A stretch of 64,000 nucleotides of DNA, from the NCBI GenBank assembly GCA_965261545.1, contig CBDHDF010000007.1, positions 320,001 to 384,000 of the forward strand, in the 5' to 3' direction. Origin of the DNA: Bdellovibrionales bacterium. GTDB taxonomy: Bacteria; Bdellovibrionota; Bdellovibrionia; Bdellovibrionales; UBA1609. This document shows, in pieces, positions 19,767 to 31,660 of this stretch (the stretch's first letter is position 1; every line of letters begins with the position of its first letter). The position numbers and the translations under genes were made by a program. The notes under the pieces were generated by a model, which was not told the origin of the DNA, did not search any database, and saw only the letters and a list, made by a program, of their open reading frames with translations.

Positions 19767-21890
19767 ATGAAGTTAAAGGCAAAACGACAAGGTCAAATGA
19801 TTCACGAAATCGAACTCACTGAGGGTGAGGAGTATATAGTGGGTCGCTCCAGTGCCTGTGATCTATGCCTTAGAGAGTCTTCTAAAATTTCTCGACAACA
19901 TGTCAAAGTCTCTCAAGATGAAAATGGGCGGTGGGTGGCTCATCTTGTCGCTCGCTTTGGAGAGATGATATTTCAAGGTGAAAGTCAGAGCACTATTGTT
20001 CTTGACCAGGCTCTCTCCTTTCACATCTCACCCTATGATATTGAGTTTTCCATGGAACCTTCCCAATTTGGATCTGAGGAGGAGGGCCAAACGGGAGCAG
20101 ATCAACAAGAGGTAGCAGATCAACAAGAGGGACGAGCGGCGCCATCTGTACCTCCTCCCTCCGCCCCTGAGTCTATGATTTCCTGCCCCCCCTCTGTGTC
20201 CCGGACTTCTTCCGTTCCGGGGGCCTTCTTGGCCCCCTTTAAAGGTGAAATGGGTGATAGAGGCGAATTTAGTGATGATATCACCGCAGATGGTGTTTCG
20301 GATGAACTTCAAGCTTGTCTAGAGATTTTGTGGGAGAATGGACCCAGTGACCTTCATTCACTGGACAAAGGAAATCACTGGCTTTTGGGACGGGATAAGT
20401 CTCTCGCCCAGATTATTCTTGCAAAAAAATATATCAGCAAAAAACAATTTGAAATTGTTAAGAAAGGTTGTGAGTTTTACATTATAGATCTTGGAAGCTC
20501 CAATGGCACGTTTTTAAATAACGAAGCCTTATCCCCCCATGAGCCTCATATTCTCAAAAGTTATGACATGATTTCTGTTAAAAATTTAAAAATGCAGTTT
20601 ACTGTAAAGAACTCCTCTCTCATAACGAACCTTCCCGCAGAGGTGAACTTGGAGAGCCTTCCTAGAGGAGAGGAAGTTTTAGCTTCCCACCAAGAGTTGT
20701 CTCGGGGAGCTTCTCAAGGAGTCCATATGCTGGGAGATCAGATACCGGGCCCCGATGAAGTCAGCACCAATATTACTAAGATGGGACGCTTTCATCAAAA
20801 ATTTCCACCACAGAAGAGAAAGAAAGTCATTCGTATTGCCACAGTTTTATTTATACTTTCTATTTTCTATGGGTTGATGTATGATAGCGGTAAAAAAACC
20901 GGACTTTTCATTGGTGAAGAAGAGTCTGGGGCCTCTGGTGGAGCTTCGGGAGAGGATATGAGTCATCTGCCTCCTTCTCAGAAAATGATGATTAAAGACA
21001 CTTTTCGTCTCGCCCGTACACACTACACTCAGGGGAGTTATCAACTTTGTCTCTCTGAGCTTCATAAGTTACACCAACAACTTCCTTTTTACAAAAACTC
21101 AAAAGAAATTGAGTCCTATTGTGAGGAAGGGCGTTTGTCAATGATGAAGCAAAAAGAAAAGGAGCGGCGAGAATTGGCGGCAAAAGAACTCAAAGAAAGA
21201 GTTCACGTTCTTATTGAAGAATGCAAACGCAAGATCAATCCTTACACAACCCTTGCTCAATTGGAACAGGAGACGTGCTTCATAGAGGTTCGTGAGAAAG
21301 ACCCTGCTCATCCAGGGATTGCAAAGCTCATCGAAGATATAAAGATTCGTGAGCAGAAAAGACTTAGTGAAAGGCAAAGGCAAGCTCAATATCAAAGTCG
21401 AGTTCATCAAGGAACTCAGAGTTACAGTGCAGCCAAGCGCACTTATAAGACAAAGTCCTTAACAGAAGCCATAAGGGCTTATGAAAACTACCTAAAGTCT
21501 TCTTTCCCTGACCCTAAAAAACTTAAGGCCAAGGCCACAAGAGAATTGGCTTCTATAAAAAAGAAATTTAAAAAGCGAGTGAGAAAACATATCACCAAAT
21601 GTAAAAAATTTCTCAACCAAAAAGCCTATAAGAGATCCATTCAGTCTTGCGAAAAAGCCACGGCAGAGGATCCTTCAAGCAAGAAGGCTGAGTCTCTACG
21701 AAAGGAGGCCCTTTCTCAGCTAAGAGTCAAAATGAGAAAAATCTACGATGAGTCTGTGTTGGAGGAACAGTTCGGTAATATAGAAGCTGCCAAAATAAAG
21801 TGGAATCAGATTATACAAGAGGATATTTCTAGCGATGAGTACTTTCAGAGAGCCAAAAGAAAATTAACAAAATATGAAGGTGGGATTTAA
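19767..21890 (+). CDS. Double-FHA, single-TM, TPR-repeat protein
   Basis: VGRS..ISRQH and LGRD..ISKKQ..DLGSSNGTFLN; TM; TPR-like helices. Confidence 0.82.
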   Translation: MKLKAKRQGQMIHEIELTEGEEYIVGRSSACDLCLRESSKISRQHVKVSQDENGRWVAHLVARFGEMIFQGESQSTIVLDQALSFHISPYDIEFSMEPSQFGSEEEGQTGADQQEVADQQEGRAAPSVPPPSAPESMISCPPSVSRTSSVPGAFLAPFKGEMGDRGEFSDDITADGVSDELQACLEILWENGPSDLHSLDKGNHWLLGRDKSLAQIILAKKYISKKQFEIVKKGCEFYIIDLGSSNGTFLNNEALSPHEPHILKSYDMISVKNLKMQFTVKNSSLITNLPAEVNLESLPRGEEVLASHQELSRGASQGVHMLGDQIPGPDEVSTNITKMGRFHQKFPPQKRKKVIRIATVLFILSIFYGLMYDSGKKTGLFIGEEESGASGGASGEDMSHLPPSQKMMIKDTFRLARTHYTQGSYQLCLSELHKLHQQLPFYKNSKEIESYCEEGRLSMMKQKEKERRELAAKELKERVHVLIEECKRKINPYTTLAQLEQETCFIEVREKDPAHPGIAKLIEDIKIREQKRLSERQRQAQYQSRVHQGTQSYSAAKRTYKTKSLTEAIRAYENYLKSSFPDPKKLKAKATRELASIKKKFKKRVRKHITKCKKFLNQKAYKRSIQSCEKATAEDPSSKKAESLRKEALSQLRVKMRKIYDESVLEEQFGNIEAAKIKWNQIIQEDISSDEYFQRAKRKLTKYEGGI

Positions 21891-21940: not shown

Positions 21941-22609
21941 ATAATCAGTCGTTCCTATGGAGGAAAGTTATTCAGACCATCTCCAGAAACTTTTCAGAGG
22001 GATGATGATTTACTTATTGTGGTCACTCCTTGGGGACCTAGAGAGTCTGCAAAAAATCTTATAGAAACAGTGAATGAGCACTGTATTTCCCACGAAAATA
22101 GTATGGAAGTCACATCACCATTTGGGTGGCTCACCTATCTATCACCTCTTGGAAATTGGCTGCGAACAGCTCTTATGATTGCTAACAACAAGCTTTGCTC
22201 CGAAGAAAATAGTTACGAGTACCAGTCGGGAGTGGAGATTCTTGCCCTTTGGCGAGATGGTGAGGACTTATGTTTAGGTCACATTGGAGGGCCACATGTG
22301 TTTATTGATCGCAAAGGCTCTAACCTCATACCCCTTGTGTCTGGGTGGGATTTGTCTACAGAAATGTGTGTAAACCATCAATTGCCTCCTCCGCTTCCTA
22401 AAGAGTTGGCAGGAATCCATCAACCTGCTAATATTCATATAATGTCTATGAAACTTTTTGAAGGGGATCGTATTATTTTGCTAAGTCGATCTTATGTGCC
22501 CAATGCCTTTTACGCCCTCTCCAGGGACAAAAGAAATCTCAGTGGTATCTCACAGGCTCTGGCTCAGTCCGACCCCCATTGCCCCTTCTGGCTAGGAGTC
22601 ACTTCATGA
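21932..22609 (+). CDS. Degenerate PP2C/PPM phosphatase-like protein
   Basis: LRTALMIANNKL, GHIG, GDRIILLS resemble PP2C motifs, but the metal-binding Asp residues (ADG, SDG, DN) are missing. Confidence 0.55.
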   Translation: MKDIISRSYGGKLFRPSPETFQRDDDLLIVVTPWGPRESAKNLIETVNEHCISHENSMEVTSPFGWLTYLSPLGNWLRTALMIANNKLCSEENSYEYQSGVEILALWRDGEDLCLGHIGGPHVFIDRKGSNLIPLVSGWDLSTEMCVNHQLPPPLPKELAGIHQPANIHIMSMKLFEGDRIILLSRSYVPNAFYALSRDKRNLSGISQALAQSDPHCPFWLGVTS

Positions 22610-23391
22610 GTGAGCACAAGACACAGTTTACGAACAATGATACTATTTACGGTCCCGTTCAAAGTCGTCGCATGGGATGGAGCCTAGGAATCAATCTTTT
22701 AGGACACGAACATAAAGTTTGCTCTTATAACTGTCCCTACTGTGAATTGGGAGAAAGTAAACTTCGCCTGAATCAAGTGGGGCGAACGATCAAATTTCAT
22801 CCCCCCGAGGTTATCAATGATCGATTTGTAAAAAAACTCTCTGATATCCAGCTCTCACCTCATCCCATAGAATCCATATGCAATTCAGGTTATGGTGAAC
22901 CCACCTTGTATCATCCTTTTAAAGAGGTGAGTGAAATGATCTACCATTCACGGAACGAAATTATGGGAAATGCTAAACTCCATCTCCTTACAAATGGAGC
23001 TCATTTTGATCAAAAAAAGGTTCTTGCAAGTCTTCCCTACTATGATTTTATTCATGTAAAGTTTGATGCGGGAGACGATCAAATTTTAAAACAGATCAAT
23101 GCTCCCCTTGTTCGGACCAATATCAACAAAATTCTCCACCAACTCCGAAGTATCGATCATTTAATTCTACAATCTATGTTTGTGACAGGGAGTGTGGACA
23201 ATACCACAAACGCTGCTGTTGAGTCTTGGATGGAGGCTGTGGGCATTGTTCAACCCCAGGTGGTTCATCTTTACACCCTAGATAGAAAGCCCACAGACGC
23301 CACTATTCTCAAGGTGGACGAAGACATCCTCGATATTATTGGAACGAAGCTTCGGCGCAAGACTCAAATAGAGTATCATGTGTTTTACTAA
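22606..23391 (+). CDS. Radical SAM protein
   Basis: IYGPVQSRRMGWSLGINL, CSYNCPYC (CxxxCxxC), SGYGEPTL; ATG at 22606 overlaps the upstream TGA. Confidence 0.9.
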   Translation: MSEHKTQFTNNDTIYGPVQSRRMGWSLGINLLGHEHKVCSYNCPYCELGESKLRLNQVGRTIKFHPPEVINDRFVKKLSDIQLSPHPIESICNSGYGEPTLYHPFKEVSEMIYHSRNEIMGNAKLHLLTNGAHFDQKKVLASLPYYDFIHVKFDAGDDQILKQINAPLVRTNINKILHQLRSIDHLILQSMFVTGSVDNTTNAAVESWMEAVGIVQPQVVHLYTLDRKPTDATILKVDEDILDIIGTKLRRKTQIEYHVFY

Positions 23392-23398
23392 AATTCTT
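23391..23398. repeat. 8-bp target-site duplication AAATTCTT, left copy (partner 31653-31660), bounding the IS110/IS66 nest
   Basis: AAATTCTT directly precedes GTAAC at 23399 and directly follows GTTAC at 31652; 8 bp is the usual IS66 TSD length. Confidence 0.9.
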
Positions 23399-23596
23399 GT
23401 AACATTCATGGGGGCGCCTTGCTTCCCCACCCACGCCCATGAATCTTTCTAGGCCCCCACTTCTTTGCACGAAGCAACTCGGTGGACAGCTTCGCTGGTC
23501 TATATAATTGGCCTCTTTTAGTTACTCTGGACTTTTGATGGTATTTTTGTCATGTATGATTCCGATACAATAAAGGATAAAGCAATAACATTATTG

Positions 23597-23783
23597 GAAG
23601 GTGATAAGATGAGTGGCCGTTGAATAGATTGGTAATTTTAATTCCGTGAAGTAACATGGTCTTGAGCTTTGGATCGAACCCACGCATGTACCTGCACTCT
23701 GAGTGTATGGACGTATAGTAAGTTGACCTATTTTCGCTTTAGAATTTATGGCAAAATCCCAAGGCTCTAGTTTTATCACCTTC
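23597..23783 (+). ncRNA. Predicted IS110 bridge/seek-type guide RNA (also at 25301-25487 and, reversed, in copy 3)
   Basis: Outer stem GAAGGTGATAA/TTATCACCTTC followed by a T-run; loop closed by GGCCGT/ATGGTC carrying TGAATAG and GTAAC (target match); second domain closed by GAGCTTTGGAT/ATCCCAAGGCTC carrying TGAGTGT and ATAGTAA (donor match). Confidence 0.7.
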
Positions 23784-23811
23784 TTTTTTTCTAACAGAAA
23801 GGAGGAGTCAT

Positions 23812-25014
23812 GTGGATATTATTTATAGTTCTGTTTGTGGAATAGATGTTCATCAACATATGTTGATGTGTACGATTGTCAAAGTGGAAGACGGTAAGAA
23901 GAAGTTTTTCACAAAAGAGTTCAAGAATTTTCCAAAAAATTTTCCTAGAATGCGCTCTTGGATGAAGCCACATAAGGTTGAGAGAGTTCTTTTTGAGAGC
24001 ACAGGGATTTATTGGAATTCTTTATACGATGATTTGACAGAAAAAGGTTATGAAGTAGATGTTATCAATGCCTTTCATGTCAAAAATATTACTGGTAAAA
24101 AAACTGACGTGTTGGATAGCCAGTGGATTGCAGAGCTTGGTGCTTGTGGTCTTCTAAGAGCTAGCTTCATTCCTCCACGTGAGATTCGTTCTATTAGACT
24201 TTTGGCTCGTTATCGTACAAAAACGATCCGCCAAATATCTTCGGAACAAAATCGTATGTATAAGGTTCTTGAATATTCAGGCATTCGTTTAACCTATGCA
24301 ATGTCTAAAGCTGACTGCGTATCTGGTATGGCCATGATTCGTGCCATAGCTAATGGAGAGAGATCAGTTTCTAAATTGATGTCTCTTGCCAGAGGGTCTT
24401 TACGTCAAAAGACCGAAGAATTTTCTTACGCCCTGTCGGGAAAGATGACGGAAGAAAATCGTTTTGTTCTTCAACGCATTCTTGATCGAATAGATTTTTT
24501 GAAAAAAGAATGCTCTCAAATTGAAGAAGAACTTTTCATTCGTATGAAACCCTATGAAAGGCAGTGGCATCTACTCCAGACTATACCTGGAATTGACGAA
24601 TTAAGTGCAGCGCTTTTGATTGCAGAAATAGGAGGCAATGTGAAGTCTTTTAAAAATAAAGGAAATTTTTGCTCCTGGATGGGGATTTGCCCATCCAATA
24701 ATGAGAGCGCAGGAAAAAAAAAGTCTTCACGAACGAGGAAAGCGAACACATATGTGAAATCGTTGGTATGTGAGATGGCCAATAGTGCTATTAAGACGAA
24801 TTCACAATTCAAAGGCAAATACCAATCACTTGTTATAAGGCGTGGGCACAAGAGATCAGTGATTGCCGTTGGTCACAAAATGATGGGAGTTGTTTATTCA
24901 GTCATAAGTAATGACACCCCCTACAAAGACCCTGGAATTGACTATGAAAAGCTCATGGTGAAAAAAAATGCACCAAGGTGGATTAGAGCGTTAAAAAAGT
25001 ATGATTTCATGTAA
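23812..25014 (+). CDS. IS110-family DEDD recombinase/transposase
   Basis: GIDVH, FESTG, KKTDVLDS (DEDD); TIPGI; NESAGK catalytic-Ser region; RBS AGGAGG. Confidence 0.95.
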   Translation: MDIIYSSVCGIDVHQHMLMCTIVKVEDGKKKFFTKEFKNFPKNFPRMRSWMKPHKVERVLFESTGIYWNSLYDDLTEKGYEVDVINAFHVKNITGKKTDVLDSQWIAELGACGLLRASFIPPREIRSIRLLARYRTKTIRQISSEQNRMYKVLEYSGIRLTYAMSKADCVSGMAMIRAIANGERSVSKLMSLARGSLRQKTEEFSYALSGKMTEENRFVLQRILDRIDFLKKECSQIEEELFIRMKPYERQWHLLQTIPGIDELSAALLIAEIGGNVKSFKNKGNFCSWMGICPSNNESAGKKKSSRTRKANTYVKSLVCEMANSAIKTNSQFKGKYQSLVIRRGHKRSVIAVGHKMMGVVYSVISNDTPYKDPGIDYEKLMVKKNAPRWIRALKKYDFM

Positions 25015-25102
25015 TGTAGGATGATTTAAAAACTCGGACATTTGAAAAAATTCGAAGAACGGATAGTGGATTCGTGCGTCCAAACTACCCCGGAGATTCA
25101 TA

Positions 25103-26806
25103 GTAACATTCATGGGGGCGCCTTGCTTCCCCACCCACGCCCATGAATCTTTCTAGGCCCCCACTTCTTTGCACGAAGCAACTCGGTGGACAGCTTCGCT
25201 GGTCTATATAATTGGCCTCTTTTAGTTACTCTGGACTTTTGATGGTATTTTTGTCATGTATGATTCCGATACAATAAAGGATAAAGCAATAACATTATTG
25301 GAAGGTGATAAGATGAGTGGCCGTTGAATAGATTGGTAATTTTAATTCCGTGAAGTAACATGGTCTTGAGCTTTGGATCGAACCCACGCATGTACCTGCA
25401 CTCTGAGTGTATGGACGTATAGTAAGTTGACCTATTTTCGCTTTAGAATTTATGGCAAAATCCCAAGGCTCTAGTTTTATCACCTTCTTTTTTTCTAACA
25501 GAAAGGAGGAGTCATGTGGATATTATTTATAGTTCTGTTTGTGGAATAGATGTTCATCAACATATGTTGATGTGTACGATTGTCAAAGTGGAAGACGGTA
25601 AGAAGAAGTTTTTCACAAAAGAGTTCAAGAATTTTCCAAAAAATTTTCCTAGAATGCGCTCTTGGATGAAGCCACATAAGGTTGAGAGAGTTCTTTTTGA
25701 GAGCACAGGGATTTATTGGAATTCTTTATACGATGATTTGACAGAAAAAGGTTATGAAGTAGATGTTATCAATGCCTTTCATGTCAAAAATATTACTGGT
25801 AAAAAAACTGACGTGTTGGATAGCCAGTGGATTGCAGAGCTTGGTGCTTGTGGTCTTCTAAGAGCTAGCTTCATTCCTCCACGTGAGATTCGTTCTATTA
25901 GACTTTTGGCTCGTTATCGTACAAAAACGATCCGCCAAATATCTTCGGAACAAAATCGTATGTATAAGGTTCTTGAATATTCAGGCATTCGTTTAACCTA
26001 TGCAATGTCTAAAGCTGACTGCGTATCTGGTATGGCCATGATTCGTGCCATAGCTAATGGAGAGAGATCAGTTTCTAAATTGATGTCTCTTGCCAGAGGG
26101 TCTTTACGTCAAAAGACCGAAGAATTTTCTTACGCCCTGTCGGGAAAGATGACGGAAGAAAATCGTTTTGTTCTTCAACGCATTCTTGATCGAATAGATT
26201 TTTTGAAAAAAGAATGCTCTCAAATTGAAGAAGAACTTTTCATTCGTATGAAACCCTATGAAAGGCAGTGGCATCTACTCCAGACTATACCTGGAATTGA
26301 CGAATTAAGTGCAGCGCTTTTGATTGCAGAAATAGGAGGCAATGTGAAATCTTTTAAAAATAAAGGAAATTTTTGCTCCTGGATGGGGATTTGCCCATCC
26401 AATAATGAGAGCGCAGGAAAAAAAAAGTCTTCACGAACGAGGAAAGCGAACACATATGTGAAATCGTTGGTATGTGAGATGGCCAATAGTGCTATTAAGA
26501 CGAATTCACAATTCAAAGGCAAATACCAATCACTTGTTATAAGGCGTGGGCACAAGAGATCAGTGATTGCCGTTGGTCACAAAATGATGGGAGTTGTTTA
26601 TTCAGTCATAAGTAATGACACCCCCTACAAAGACCCTGGAATTGACTATGAAAAGCTCATGGTGAAAAAAAATGCACCAAGGTGGATTAGAGCGTTAAAA
26701 AAGTATGATTTCATGTAATGTAGGATGATTTAAAAACTCGGACATTTGAAAAAATTCGAAGAACGGATAGTGGATTCGTGCGTCCAAACTACCCCGGAGA
26801 TTCATA
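25103..26806 (+). mobile_element. IS110-family element, copy 2 (head-to-tail with copy 1)
   Basis: Junction GGAGATTCATA-GTAAC-ATTCATGGGGG at about 25092-25118; ends abutting the IS66 left TIR. Confidence 0.95.
25516..26718 (+). CDS. IS110-family recombinase/transposase (same protein as 23812..25014)
   Basis: Same 400-aa sequence. Confidence 0.95.
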   Translation: MDIIYSSVCGIDVHQHMLMCTIVKVEDGKKKFFTKEFKNFPKNFPRMRSWMKPHKVERVLFESTGIYWNSLYDDLTEKGYEVDVINAFHVKNITGKKTDVLDSQWIAELGACGLLRASFIPPREIRSIRLLARYRTKTIRQISSEQNRMYKVLEYSGIRLTYAMSKADCVSGMAMIRAIANGERSVSKLMSLARGSLRQKTEEFSYALSGKMTEENRFVLQRILDRIDFLKKECSQIEEELFIRMKPYERQWHLLQTIPGIDELSAALLIAEIGGNVKSFKNKGNFCSWMGICPSNNESAGKKKSSRTRKANTYVKSLVCEMANSAIKTNSQFKGKYQSLVIRRGHKRSVIAVGHKMMGVVYSVISNDTPYKDPGIDYEKLMVKKNAPRWIRALKKYDFM

Positions 26807-28521
26807 GTAACTATTCAGGGGGTGCCGCATTAATTCGAACAATTTTTTTAAAAAAAGTATAAAAATTCTTGACAAGTTTTTGAAGCAAACGACCTCTTTC
26901 ATTTGTTCTTTATCGAATATGTTCCTGCATATGGCTTAAACTCTCTGAGAGCCATAGTATTGAAAGATTGTGAAACATAGGTCGCGGGGGGCACTTCTCA
27001 TTCCTTTTGCTTCTTAGAACGAATCCTAGTGCATTTTTTTTAATGAAAAAAAGGCATGTTAATATTTTCATAAGGTAAGTATGAAAATAGAAAATATTGA
27101 CGTGTCTTCAGCCATAAATAAAATCAGGAAGCTTCTTAAGAAAGAGAAGTCCCTTTCTCCCGCTTTTATTGTGGCCATTGAGTTGTTGATCAAAATCATC
27201 ACTATTCTAGTAAATCAAAAAAAATTAAATAGTCAAAACAGTAGTATTGCCCCTTCTCAAGATCCGAATGGCCCTAAAAAGAAACCTAAGGAAGAAACTG
27301 GTAAGAAGCCAGGAGGACAACCCGGACACGAAGGAGCTACTTTAAAACCCGTGGATACTCCAGACAAGGTGGAGTTCATTTCTATTAATAAAGAGGAACT
27401 TCCTCCAGGTGATTACATTTCTTCTGGAGTTGAAAAGCGTCAAGTATTTGAGGTAGACCTTTCTGTGCATGTCACGGAGTATCAAGGAGAAATCCTCGAA
27501 GACCAAGATGGGAATCAGTGGGTTGCAGGTTTTCCAGAAGGAATCAATAACCCAACTCAATATGGCCCTTCTGTGAAAGCTCACTCAGTTTATATGTCCC
27601 AGTTTCAGTTAATCCCTCATCTTCGAGTCGCAAGTTACTTTAATCAATGGGGTCTATCGCTTGCTGGATCTACGGTACACAATTTTAACAAATCTGCCTT
27701 TGAGGCTCTGGAAGCTTTTGAGGAGTGGGCAAAGGAAACTCTTCTGAACTCACCTTTGATTCATGCTGACGAAACTGGAGTGAATGTTAATGGGAAGAGG
27801 CTGTGGTTTCACCTCTTGTCCAATGATACTGTGGTTCTCTATCAGGTGGACGAAAAAAGAGGCGCAGAGGCTATGGATCGCATGGGAATTCTTCCAAAAT
27901 ACACAGGGATTGTTTGTCATGACCATTGGAAACCTTATTATACATATACTTCCTGCATTCATGCCCTTTGCAATGCGCACCATTTAAGGGAGCTTCAAAG
28001 AGCTTGGGAGCAAGATGATCAAAAATGGGCAAAAGAAATGAAGTCTCTTTTAGAGACAATAAACAAAGAGGTGCACGATACGCAGAACCAATGCCTTTCA
28101 CAAGACCGAATTGAATATTACAAAGAGAAATATCGAAATATTCTCTTCGAAGGGGAAAAGGAATCTCCATTAATGGAGAGGACAGAGAAAAAAAAGAAGG
28201 GAAAGGTTAAACAATCCAAATCTAGAAATTTACTAGATCGACTGAGAAACTTTGAAGATGATACCTTGCTATTTATGAAGGACCCCATAGTTCCATTTAC
28301 GAATAATATAGCAGAAAATGATCTGAGAATGACCAAAGTTCAGCAGAAAATATCTGGGTGCTTTCGTTCGTTGATGGGAGCCAAGACATTTTGTAGAAAC
28401 CGAAGCTTTCTCCTGACTTGCCAGAAAAATGGCATAGAACCTAAAGATGCTCTAAATATGCTATTTCAAGGAAAACTTCCCTCATTTATGACTCGAATTC
28501 GCCCACCCCCTGAATAGTTAC
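26807..28521 (+). mobile_element. IS66-family element (single-ORF, ISBst12-like), 1715 bp
   Basis: TIRs GTAACTATTCAGGGGGTG / CACCCCCTGAATAGTTAC; 8-bp TSD displaced outward by the IS110 insertions. Confidence 0.93.
27081..28517 (+). CDS. IS66-family transposase TnpC
   Basis: NSQNSSIAPSQD, GGQPGHEG, HADETG, HDHWKPY, CNAHHLREL, FTNNIAENDLRMTKVQQKISGCFRS. Confidence 0.95.
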   Translation: MKIENIDVSSAINKIRKLLKKEKSLSPAFIVAIELLIKIITILVNQKKLNSQNSSIAPSQDPNGPKKKPKEETGKKPGGQPGHEGATLKPVDTPDKVEFISINKEELPPGDYISSGVEKRQVFEVDLSVHVTEYQGEILEDQDGNQWVAGFPEGINNPTQYGPSVKAHSVYMSQFQLIPHLRVASYFNQWGLSLAGSTVHNFNKSAFEALEAFEEWAKETLLNSPLIHADETGVNVNGKRLWFHLLSNDTVVLYQVDEKRGAEAMDRMGILPKYTGIVCHDHWKPYYTYTSCIHALCNAHHLRELQRAWEQDDQKWAKEMKSLLETINKEVHDTQNQCLSQDRIEYYKEKYRNILFEGEKESPLMERTEKKKKGKVKQSKSRNLLDRLRNFEDDTLLFMKDPIVPFTNNIAENDLRMTKVQQKISGCFRSLMGAKTFCRNRSFLLTCQKNGIEPKDALNMLFQGKLPSFMTRIRPPPE

Positions 28522-29051
28522 TATGAATCTCCGGGGTAGTTTGGACGCACGAATCCACTATCCGTTCTTCGAATTTTTTCAAATGTCCGAGTTTTTAAAT
28601 CATCCTACATTACATGAAATCATACTTTTTTAACGCTCTAATCCACCTTGGTGCATTTTTTTTCACCATGAGCTTTTCATAGTCAATTCCAGGGTCTTTG
28701 TAGGGGGTGTCATTACTTATGACTGAATAAACAACTCCCATCATTTTGTGACCAACGGCAATCACTGATCTCTTGTGCCCACGCCTTATAACAAGTGATT
28801 GGTATTTGCCTTTGAATTGTGAATTCGTCTTAATAGCACTATTGGCCATCTCACATACCAACGATTTCACATATGTGTTCGCTTTCCTCGTTCGTGAAGA
28901 CTTTTTTTTTCCTGCGCTCTCATTATTGGATGGGCAAATCCCCATCCAGGAGCAAAAATTTCCTTTATTTTTAAAAGACTTCACATTGCCTCCTATTTCT
29001 GCAATCAAAAGCGCTGCACTTAATTCGTCAATTCCAGGTATAGTCTGGAGT

Positions 29052-30468
29052 CAATGCCGTTTCCTTAAGAAAAATCTCTTGAAATTATTAGATAAATCGA
29101 CAAGAATAAGACTTGTTTTATTTTACACCCAACCCTCAACCAAGGAGTAAGTCACATGCAATCCAATATTGATCTCGAAAGCCCCCAAATGACGAGTTCG
29201 CGTCACAGATGACCATTTTATTCTACCAAAACTTGATTCTTCCTTCAAGCCAGAGCACCTTGTCGATCCAGAAAAACAAAAAAGGAATCGAAAATTTAAT
29301 CCTCAAATTTTCTTTTTTACCATTATCTATCTTATTTCAGGAACAAATTACGAAGGCTACCAAATCGCTCTTAAGACGGTATGGACTCATTTTGGTGACC
29401 TGCTTCTCATGCCAGTCAAAAGCAGTCTCAGCAAGATACGTCAAAGTATTTCTTACCTATTTTTCAAAGATATCTTTGAATCTCTGATTACAGACTACGA
29501 ACCATTGAGAAAAACGTTTCATGGTTTTTATATCTATGCCATAGATGGCGACCAATTAGCACTTCCTCGCTCTAAAGATCTTTTAAAGGAGGGTTATTGT
29601 GGGTACCCTTGCCCAAATGAGATGGAAACTCATTTCTTACGTATGTATCTATCTCATGCTTATGACGTTTTATCGGGTGTGACAAAGAATCTTTGCTTTT
29701 CTCCCGCTCTCAACGAAATCGCCAATGCTATTCAAATGATAGGTAGTTTTGAGAGTAATAGCATAACTCTCTACGATAGGCTTTATTTATCTACAGAGAT
29801 TATTAAGGCCCATGCTCAAGCCAGTAACTTCTTTATTGCGCGTTGTAAGCGAGGCTCTACTTTTATCCCCATCGTAAATTTATTTAATGGCCCAGGTTGG
29901 TATTCACAAATGGTTATTGAGGGGGTGGTCATTCATCTCTATAAGTATAAAAACCCAAAGACTGGGGAGTTCTCTGTTTTGGCCACTAATCTTCCGCATG
30001 GCTCCTTGGACAAGAAGGATATGGTTGCTCTTTACTCTCGTCGTTGGGAAATAGAAACGACATTTCGTGATTTTACATCGACAATGAAAATGGAGCAGTG
30101 GCACTCAACAAGCCTTAATGGAATATTGCAAGAGCTGTATTCTTATTTTTGGCTCTTCAATTATACAAAGATTCAAATGAGCATAAATGAGGATGAAGAC
30201 AGTGTGAATCAGTTGGTAAAAAATGACTACAAAAAACCTAACTTTAAACTGATTCTTGATTTCATAATGGATAGCATCCCCCTTTTTGTTGCGGGGCTCT
30301 ATCAGAAATTTAGGAAGCAGATAAAGTTGCTGATGAAGATTTCAATGGAGAAGAGGAGGCACTTCAAAAGAAGCTATGAAAGGTCTATCAAAAGGGCTGG
30401 GAGTTCTTTTAAAAGAAATAGCTTAACGCAGAGGCAGAGGGGTGTGGTGGCTTAAGGAAACGGCATTG
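29052..30468 (+). mobile_element. IS4-family element A, copy 1
   Basis: 18-bp TIR CAATGCCGTTTCCTTAAG; 10-bp TSD AGTCTGGAGT (29042-29051, 30469-30478). Confidence 0.93.
29409..30455 (+). CDS. IS4-family DDE transposase (5' part appears frameshifted; likely start 29156)
   Basis: AIDG, YDRLY, Y..RWEIE..FR..(YREK-like); frame is open from 29193, while the RBS and ATG at 29156 are in another frame. Confidence 0.88.
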   Translation: MPVKSSLSKIRQSISYLFFKDIFESLITDYEPLRKTFHGFYIYAIDGDQLALPRSKDLLKEGYCGYPCPNEMETHFLRMYLSHAYDVLSGVTKNLCFSPALNEIANAIQMIGSFESNSITLYDRLYLSTEIIKAHAQASNFFIARCKRGSTFIPIVNLFNGPGWYSQMVIEGVVIHLYKYKNPKTGEFSVLATNLPHGSLDKKDMVALYSRRWEIETTFRDFTSTMKMEQWHSTSLNGILQELYSYFWLFNYTKIQMSINEDEDSVNQLVKNDYKKPNFKLILDFIMDSIPLFVAGLYQKFRKQIKLLMKISMEKRRHFKRSYERSIKRAGSSFKRNSLTQRQRGVVA

Positions 30469-31652
30469 AGTCTGGAGTAGATGCCACTGCCTTTCATAGG
30501 GTTTCATACGAATGAAAAGTTCTTCTTCAATTTGAGAGCATTCTTTTTTCAAAAAATCTATTCGATCAAGAATGCGTTGAAGAACAAAACGATTTTCTTC
30601 CGTCATCTTTCCCGACAGGGCGTAAGAAAATTCTTCGGTCTTTTGACGTAAAGACCCTCTGGCAAGAGACATCAATTTAGAAACTGATCTCTCTCCATTA
30701 GCTATGGCACGAATCATGGCCATACCAGATACGCAGTCAGCTTTAGACATTGCATAGGTTAAACGAATGCCTGAATATTCAAGAACCTTATACATACGAT
30801 TTTGTTCCGAAGATATTTGGCGGATCGTTTTTGTACGATAACGAGCCAAAAGTCTAATAGAACGAATCTCACGTGGAGGAATGAAGCTAGCTCTTAGAAG
30901 ACCACAAGCACCAAGCTCTGCAATCCACTGGCTATCCAACACGTCAGTTTTTTTACCAGTAATATTTTTGACATGAAAGGCATTGATAACATCTACTTCA
31001 TAACCTTTTTCTGTCAAATCATCGTATAAAGAATTCCAATAAATCCCTGTGCTCTCAAAAAGAACTCTCTCAACCTTATGTGGCTTCATCCAAGAGCGCA
31101 TTCTAGGAAAATTTTTTGGAAAATTCTTGAACTCTTTTGTGAAAAACTTCTTCTTACCGTCTTCCACTTTGACAATCGTACACATCAACATATGTTGATG
31201 AACATCTATTCCACAAACAGAACTATAAATAATATCCACATGACTCCTCCTTTCTGTTAGAAAAAAAGAAGGTGATAAAACTAGAGCCTTGGGATTTTGC
31301 CATAAATTCTAAAGCGAAAATAGGTCAACTTACTATACGTCCATACACTCAGAGTGCAGGTACATGCGTGGGTTCGATCCAAAGCTCAAGACCATGTTAC
31401 TTCACGGAATTAAAATTACCAATCTATTCAACGGCCACTCATCTTATCACCTTCCAATAATGTTATTGCTTTATCCTTTATTGTATCGGAATCATACATG
31501 ACAAAAATACCATCAAAAGTCCAGAGTAACTAAAAGAGGCCAATTATATAGACCAGCGAAGCTGTCCACCGAGTTGCTTCGTGCAAAGAAGTGGGGGCCT
31601 AGAAAGATTCATGGGCGTGGGTGGGGAAGCAAGGCGCCCCCATGAATGTTAC

Positions 31653-31660
31653 AAATTCTT
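31653..31660. repeat. 8-bp target-site duplication AAATTCTT, right copy
   Basis: Direct repeat of 23391-23398. Confidence 0.9.

Follow-up and report, generated by a model that had tools for sequence, protein, structure and literature searches.

IS110-family copies flank an IS66-family element

The window (the whole stretch of DNA analysed here, 64,000 nucleotides from a Bdellovibrionales genome, to which all coordinates refer) contains a block of insertion sequences in which two tandem copies of an IS110-family element adjoin one tip of an IS66-family element and a third copy adjoins the other tip. The IS110-family element is 1704 bp long, with a left end of 413 nt and a right end of 88 nt. 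Copy A (23399..25102, + strand) was delimited by Pfam matches on its open reading frame and by a tandem repeat of period 1704, the GTAAC that is common to both junctions being counted with the left end. Its left non-coding end (23399-23811), which holds the region 23597-23783 considered below, lies beside a gene (23812..25014, + strand; GTG start) for a DEDD recombinase (RuvC-like plus Tnp) of 400 aa that matched DEDD_Tnp_IS110 and Transposase_20 (PF01548 and PF02371); a long non-coding end beside such a gene is a hallmark of bridge-RNA elements. Copy B follows in tandem (25103..26806, + strand) and carries an identical RNA at 25301-25487. The joint between the right end of copy A and the left end of copy B (AGATTCATA GTAAC; 25094..25107, + strand) is identical in sequence to the donor junction of the circular form, and the end-to-end junction that an earlier note on this DNA had reported at 25100-25113 is this tandem joint. 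All sequence strings quoted in that note were found at their positions.

The neighbouring element (26807..28521, + strand; 1715 bp) has a single open reading frame (27081-28517) that encodes a DDE_Tnp_IS66 transposase, inverted repeats that start with GTAACTATTCAGGGGGTG, and an 8-bp target duplication; the earlier note's label of an IS66 terminal inverted repeat is correct. The ends of IS66 elements typically begin with GTAA. Copy C of the IS110 element lies at the opposite IS66 tip (28522..31652, - strand) and is broken at 29067-30468 by a DDE_Tnp_1 insertion sequence, and the 8-bp duplication AAATTCTT (23391..23398, with its twin at 31653-31660) flanks the whole IS110-IS110-IS66-IS110 block. 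In the genome (4.3 Mb in 11 contigs) we counted about 30 full copies of the IS110 element and many fragments, and arrays of 2-4 copies in tandem occur.

The DDE_Tnp_1 insertion sequence has an open reading frame at 29409-30455, inverted repeats TCAATGCCGTTTCCTTAAG and an 8-bp duplication GTCTGGAG; elsewhere in the genome, an end of this element is joined to a cut IS66 tip (GTAACTATTCAGGGGG|CAATGCCG). Upstream of the insertion sequence block, 19767-21890 encodes a 707-aa protein with FHA and Yop-YscD_cpl domains that resembles an inner-membrane component of type III secretion systems.

A two-domain RNA is predicted upstream of the recombinase gene

The closest recombinases (P0002-P0007) share 65-80% identity with that of the window, while 60 related genomes gave only matches of 32-35% identity. 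A search for related loci with the single recombinase protein found none; an alignment-based scan yielded a homologue set of 79 loci with 33-46% protein identity, 46 after de-duplication. The ends of four homologues were set by means of multi-copy sets, and the rows for right ends were curated by hand.

The core of the putative bridge RNA (23597..23783, + strand) is closed by an outer stem (23597-23610/23770-23783). The earlier note had described an 11-bp closing stem followed by a T-run; the T-run is indeed present at 23784-23790, and the stem measures 14 bp, including two G-U pairs. This stem is part of the minimum free energy (MFE) fold (z -2.8; 0 of 200 shuffles fold as well), and an outer stem of different sequence could be seen at the equivalent place in homologues, as judged by eye and uncounted.

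Within the outer stem, the 5' domain forms a loop (23615..23661, + strand) with a closing stem (23615-19/23657-61) and a distal stem-loop (23630-46). The closing stem reads GGCCG/UGGUC. This agrees with the loop drawn previously, with UGAAUAG on its 5' side and GUAAC on its 3' side, and it is supported by alignment. The plain MFE fold of this RNA lacks the loop, the homology-based fold being 3.3 kcal/mol costlier. In an alignment of 25 sequences (A3), 88.4% of the cells in the closing and distal stems were paired, compared with 20-49% when the partners were slid, and 9 of the 10 pairs changed on both sides; RNAalifold kept only 4 pairs on the same alignment. A covariance model built from 23 homologues, with the present sequence left out, found its three best matches in the window at 23606-23668, 25310-25372 and 31383-31445 (minus strand), which are the three copies. 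These scored 19.2 bits against 10.3 bits for the next-best match in the window, with a rough and modest E-value of 0.066 for the top ones. Rfam 15 gave no match on 22500-27500 at its E-value threshold, and a MAFFT alignment of four whole RNAs was poor.

The first loop is predicted to read the tip of IS66-family elements

Both sides of this loop match the point where the element meets IS66 DNA, in keeping with the earlier designation as the target loop. Its 5' side holds the predicted right target guide UUGAAUAG (23620..23627, + strand), which pairs with the top-strand sequence CTATTCAG immediately to the right of an AA core over 8 nt, with one U-G pair. Its 3' side holds AGUAACAU (23650..23657, + strand), in which GU corresponds to the left target, AA to the core and CAU to the first bases of the element's left end, in a handshake-like extension; the whole equals AGTAACAT of the right-end/left-end junction. 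The two sides of an internal loop thus pair with opposite target strands on either side of a short core (GU-AA = GT-AA), as is characteristic of bridge RNAs. Together the two guides read GTAACTATTCA(G), which agrees with the claim that targeting covers the outermost 11 bases of the inverted repeat of IS66-family elements; in the window, this target is the left inverted-repeat tip GT-AA-CTATTCAG (26807..26818, + strand).

The distribution of the element in the genome agrees with this reading. Among 36 matches to its right end, 17 adjoin an IS66 tip (16 read GTAACTATTCAGGGGG and one reads GTAACTATTCAGGGTG), 10 adjoin the left end of another IS110 copy, and the other 9 lie at non-tip sites that start with GTAA and match TATTCA in part. 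One of the off-target sites, GTAACTATTCATTATC, has all 11 bases and yet is no IS66 tip; further off-target sites are GTAACTACTCAATC, GTAACTATTTGTTAGC and GTAACTCTTTG, and off-target sites retain part of the match to UUGAAUAG. Conversely, 15 of the 33 GTAACTATTCAGG IS66 tips in the genome are occupied, always at exactly one position, as are 16 of the 36 genomic copies of the 11-mer. The left flanks of the 51 left-end copies that we compared are mutually unrelated. In three unoccupied IS66 copies, perfect 8-bp duplications directly abut GTAAC...GTTAC, which fixes the IS66 termini. These two observations uphold the proposal that targeting would not depend on host flanks.

Right junctions place the crossover in AA

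Copies of the element inside other copies were informative about the crossover point. Right junctions reading CATAGT-AA-CTACCCC and CATAGT-AA-ACTACCCC derive from the site CCAAAC, a right junction CATAGT-AA-GCTCATGG was formed at the site GAAAAG, and a right junction CATAGT-AA-GTTGACC was formed at TAGTAAG. Since these sites have neither GT nor AC at the joint, the junctions fit only a crossover in AA, and the AC/GT core suggested previously has to be replaced by AA. One left junction (CATTTGAA|GTAAC, within a DDE insertion sequence) is at odds with an AA core.

The donor-binding domain and covariation of guides with element ends

The second, putative donor-binding domain (23664..23767, + strand) has a stem at 23664-74/23756-67, and closing stems of this domain could be seen by eye in homologues, for example GGTGCA/TGCACC in L106. 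Directly after a conserved ACG lies the predicted left donor guide UAUAGUAA (23714..23721, + strand), which equals the element's right end plus core (CATAGTAA) save for one wobble, and which includes the AUAGUAA that had already been proposed as a donor guide. The three matches run slightly further than the earlier note had given. Taken singly, those of the right target guide, the left-junction guide and the right-end guide are only mildly unusual, being equalled in 235, 118 and 193 of 2000 dinucleotide shuffles, respectively; jointly they were equalled in 2 of 2000.

Covariation of the guides with target and donor across homologous left ends had been put forward as a check, and it turned out in favour of the target guides and the right-end donor guide, but not of a donor guide for the left-end side. 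In the four homologues with defined ends and at many single loci, a conserved GCACG some 60-110 nt ahead of the start codon is directly followed by a copy of the element's own final 7-10 right-end bases, and these sequences differ from one homologue to the next (CATGGAAAG, CACGGTAAAA, CACGGCAAA, CACGTTAAA, CACAGTAA, ATGTTAAAA, ATAGCAG, CAGGATAG, ACGGTAG, ATGACAG and others). Likewise, the stretch that directly precedes the 3' strand of the stem closing the first loop has the sequence of the element's own left junction (ACACAAAT, GCAGTAGAC, GGTTAACG, CCTAACG, ACGGCAAC, GATTAGAC, TTTTTAGTT, ACCACAGCTT and others). In tests anchored on these positions, the right-end guide matched its own right end over at least 8 nt at 20 of 46 loci (3.4% for non-cognate pairs), the left-junction guide matched over at least 8 nt at 16 of 46 (8.2%), and the 5' side of the first loop paired with the own right flank over at least 6 nt at 8 of 26 (10%), figures that are not clean probabilities, since the anchors were picked after seeing the data, and that overstate independence because the relatives (33-46% identity) are kin. 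Unanchored tests of the longest match were weak (at least 9 nt in left windows at 21 of 46 versus 21%, and at right ends at 12 of 46 versus 12%).

Multi-copy relatives in Endozoicomonas (L069, L071, L072, L076) and Methylomarinum (L079, L082, L085, L087, L107) have unrelated flanks on both sides, with just 4-8 nt of wobble-rich pairing to the 5'-side guide, which suggests that their targeting is much looser than that of the present element.

For the left-end side of the donor, the earlier note had drawn the second domain as a simple loop in which UGAGUGU (23700-23706) reads the left-end side and AUAGUAA the right-end side, only 7 nt apart. Taken as a whole, we consider this model unlikely. The pairing of UGAGUGU with ACATTCA spans 7 nt, includes one G-T wobble and is the longest of its kind in the donor domain, and a comparable match (CCAUGAG) occurs in L095 at much the same position; however, an equally good match was obtained in 728 of 2000 shuffles. 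Moreover, UGAGUGU makes up the loop and 3' arm of a predicted distal hairpin (23691..23710, + strand) that ends at the conserved ACG, and in 20 of 24 homologues a hairpin with unrelated stem sequences likewise ends at most 4 nt from the right-end guide. On account of both the shuffles and its position in the hairpin, UGAGUGU is probably not a guide. Nor did complementarity to the own left-end start show any enrichment when the whole donor domain of the homologues was considered (mean 5.30 versus 5.38 for non-cognate pairs; at least 7 nt in 2 of 23 versus 11.5%). Of the two donor guides that a bridge RNA is expected to carry, the one for the right end is matched, and the one for the left-end side lacks enrichment in homologues.

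A tentative candidate for a short right donor guide is AUGU (23686..23689, + strand), which could pair with ACAT (the second core A plus the first three bases of the left end). Its position just 5' of the hairpin corresponds to that of 4-5-nt matches in some relatives (GAUUG/CGATC in L075, GAACU/AGTTT in L132 and UGUUG/CAACG in L098), and the candidate passed no statistical test.

A further segment resembling the left-end start, AUUUAUGG (23744-51), was tried as a third guide segment and rejected as a chance likeness, with no enrichment in relatives (6.39 versus 6.29). On the 5' side of the donor domain, RNA bases ACCCACGC (23680-23687) repeat an arm of the left-end hairpin (23425-23432), and a likeness of the same kind is seen in relatives, for example in L106 (GCACCACAGAU versus GCACCATCAGAT).

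At C10:1009937 and C10:1020994, an IS110 copy has inserted within the stretch of a second copy from which the latter's right-end guide would be transcribed. The target of this self-hit, TATA-GTAA-GTTGACC (TATAGTAAG), is equivalent to 23714-23722 of the window and matches the donor arm only. This would fit insertions at half-matches of the type that a preprint describes for IS621, as far as its available portion goes (10.64898/2026.08.31.748434).

Comparison with known bridge and seek RNAs

Several features are shared with IS621, as it is described in the consulted parts of the original reports (PMC11208160, PMC11208158): the RNA lies in a long left end upstream of a DEDD recombinase gene, it has a target and a donor domain, each loop would have one guide to the bottom strand left of the core and one to the top strand right of it, and a guide extends into the partner DNA in a handshake-like manner. 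The same parts give a CT core for IS621, whereas the core here is AA; unlike in IS621, the right target guide of the present element leaves the core uncovered, and the left-end side of the donor has a guide of at most 4-5 nt. The two recombinases are only distantly related (59.6 bits) and differ in length (400 aa here, 326 in IS621).

The main difference concerns guide order. The earlier note had suspected that this order is flipped relative to IS621, and we found it reversed in each of the two loops, in this RNA as well as in its homologues, so that the layout of the IS110 group as set out in the sections consulted of PMC11208160 does not apply. Both guides that have bottom-strand partners lie on the 3' side of their loops. 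We judge that the mirrored order is real and common to the whole clade. In IS621, the handshake bases come after the top-strand guides, according to the portion consulted of PMC11208158. When both DNAs are turned round, the geometry of the present element equals the one described there for IS621, including the 3-base extension (CAU) into the partner DNA.

The order of target matches is instead shared with the seekRNAs of IS1111-type elements (ISEc11, ISPa11, ISKpn4 and ISPst6), in which, according to the consulted part of PMC11187229, the complement of the top strand comes first and the bottom-strand match second in 5' to 3' order, and the RNA lies downstream of the gene; ISEc21, with its RNA upstream, is described there with the opposite guide order. 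A subterminal inverted repeat of 8-10 bp is another shared trait. Here it reads AGATTCAT at the right end (25094-25101) and ATGAATCT at about +40 in the left end (23439-23446), and it is conserved across the clade (in L069, L079 and L083 with an ATTTTCA-type right copy and ATGAAAAT on the left). In the same part of PMC11187229, the IS1111 group has its RNA downstream, recombinases of 330-350 aa and subterminal repeats of 11-13 bp that lie 7 and 3 bp from the ends, whereas the present element has its RNA upstream, a recombinase of 400 aa and an 8-bp repeat whose left copy lies 40 nt inside the element, not 7; it does not fit that group as defined there. The IS110 group is described in that source as heterogeneous, with recombinases of 315-450 aa. 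With its RNA upstream and its guides ordered as in IS1111, the clade combines traits of both groups.

In the accessible text of these sources we found no statement of a mirrored order in upstream RNAs, and such layouts may be displayed in Extended Data Fig. 10c of PMC11208160 or Fig. S12 of a 2026 preprint (10.64898/2026.10.21.760802), which, in its part consulted, presents 86 bridge-RNA models, many of which depart from IS621. Some known elements of the IS1111 group are likewise DEDD-recombinase insertion sequences that naturally target the terminal inverted repeat of another transposon; their target family is a different one, and they insert inside a 38-bp repeat, whereas insertion here is 2 bases from the IS66-family tip. 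Judged by titles and the starts of abstracts, we found no account of an IS110 element aimed at IS66 ends.

Proposed mode of insertion and alternative explanations

Altogether, we consider it very likely that an IS110-family insertion sequence encodes its two-domain bridge (seek) RNA at 23597-23783, in its left end and ahead of the gene for its DEDD recombinase. Comparison of copies and homologues at the sequence level establishes the predicted anatomy, the target and the covariation of guides with element ends in relatives; that the RNA is produced, binds the recombinase and works as in IS621 is what we infer by analogy.

According to this reading, the guides of the target loop would jointly spell GT-AA-CTATTCA(G), the 11-12 bases with which an IS66-family inverted repeat begins, and the RNA would bridge the joined ends of the element (...CATAGT-AA-CATTCATGG...) and the IS66 tip (GT-AA-CTATTCAG). 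Crossover in AA would then insert the element two bases in from the IS66 tip, such that the element's right end is turned towards IS66. As GT would be contributed by the element's right end, the right junction would read GTAACTATTCAG again and the full target would be rebuilt, so that a further copy could enter, which would account for the tandem arrays. The left-end side of the donor would be read over a short stretch only (perhaps AUGU with ACAT), or in some other way.

A different explanation is that the structure serves chiefly as a leader or attenuator for the recombinase gene, in which the stem and T-run act as a terminator that limits read-through and the guide matches are incidental. 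The 14-bp stem is followed by seven T (23784..23790, + strand), 21 nt upstream of the start codon, as would suit an attenuator. Bases 83-147 of the left end (23481-23545) are, in addition, 94-97% identical to a piece with about 55 copies in the genome, which in all 6 copies examined directly precedes one recurring ATG (ATGGAGCCG...) and apparently represents promoter or leader sequence from a different insertion sequence of high copy number; the likeness suggests an internal promoter, which would serve the bridge RNA. However, the T-run is not conserved in the homologues examined, whereas the two-domain RNA and the matches between guides and ends are, and a scan with a consensus terminator model called none. 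We therefore regard a mainly attenuating role as quite improbable; attenuator and guide roles could also coexist.

That the adjacency to IS66 tips is the work of the IS66 transposase, with the IS110 left tip (GTAACATTCATGGGGG) acting as an IS66-type end and blocks moving together, is hardly credible. In favour of this view, 8-bp duplications surround a palindromic element of 51 bp with such ends at two sites, and AAATTCTT flanks the entire block of the window. Against it, the end that faces the tip is invariably the right one, at a single base position and at both IS66 ends; off-target copies occupy TATTCA-like sites where no IS66 is present; the tip is matched by the guide; and the duplication round the block is equally expected if IS66 arrived first.

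Returning to the bridge RNA, a broader reading is possible, and we hold it only tentatively: the clade of IS110 elements with recombinases of about 400 aa might use a third layout, with an upstream RNA, the IS1111 guide order and no long guide for the left-end side of the donor, which for that reason might be read through the conserved left-end hairpin and the subterminal repeat. Such a layout may amount to a reversal of gene and RNA with respect to the sites of recombination. In the present case the element would be a parasite of a parasite, with an 11-12-nt target wholly within the IS66 tip, a target that is rebuilt to give tandem arrays, and a left tip that is itself an IS66-type end, so that the IS66 transposase might carry the element along.

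The bridge-RNA mechanism was described in 2024, and here its guide pieces would stand in mirrored order. Bridge recombinases are under development as programmable DNA-insertion tools, and the published rules come from the short IS621/ISEc21 branch and from IS1111. Swapped guide sides and a minimal guide for one donor arm would mean that the layout is not fixed, which bears on guide prediction and on the design of such systems. For the element itself, a target wholly within the tip of another insertion sequence would offer many safe landing sites in a genome rich in insertion sequences without splitting a host gene, and it would explain the tandem accumulation of the element there.

Small elements related to the left end

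Bases 1-46 of the left end (23399-23444) also occur in a free 51-bp palindromic element (GTAACATTCATGGGGGCGCC...CCCATGAATGTTAC), found at C2:618571-618619 and C6:99928-99976 with 8-bp duplications AATGAGAC and CAAATACA. These duplications give it the appearance of a miniature element that an IS66-type transposase has mobilised, and by this likeness the IS110 left tip resembles the very IS66 repeat that the element targets (GTAACATTCATGGGGGCGCC versus GTAACTATTCAGGGGGTGCC). A second type of mini-element, of about 105 bp (C6:3544, C3:20865, C11:725851 and C10:576454), consists of the left-end hairpin plus 57 nt ending in AACATTCATA. These mini-elements adjoin GTAAC-type tips (GTAACTGCTCAGGGGG, or an IS110 left end), and they are possibly non-autonomous derivatives that are moved in trans by the IS110 recombinase and its RNA.
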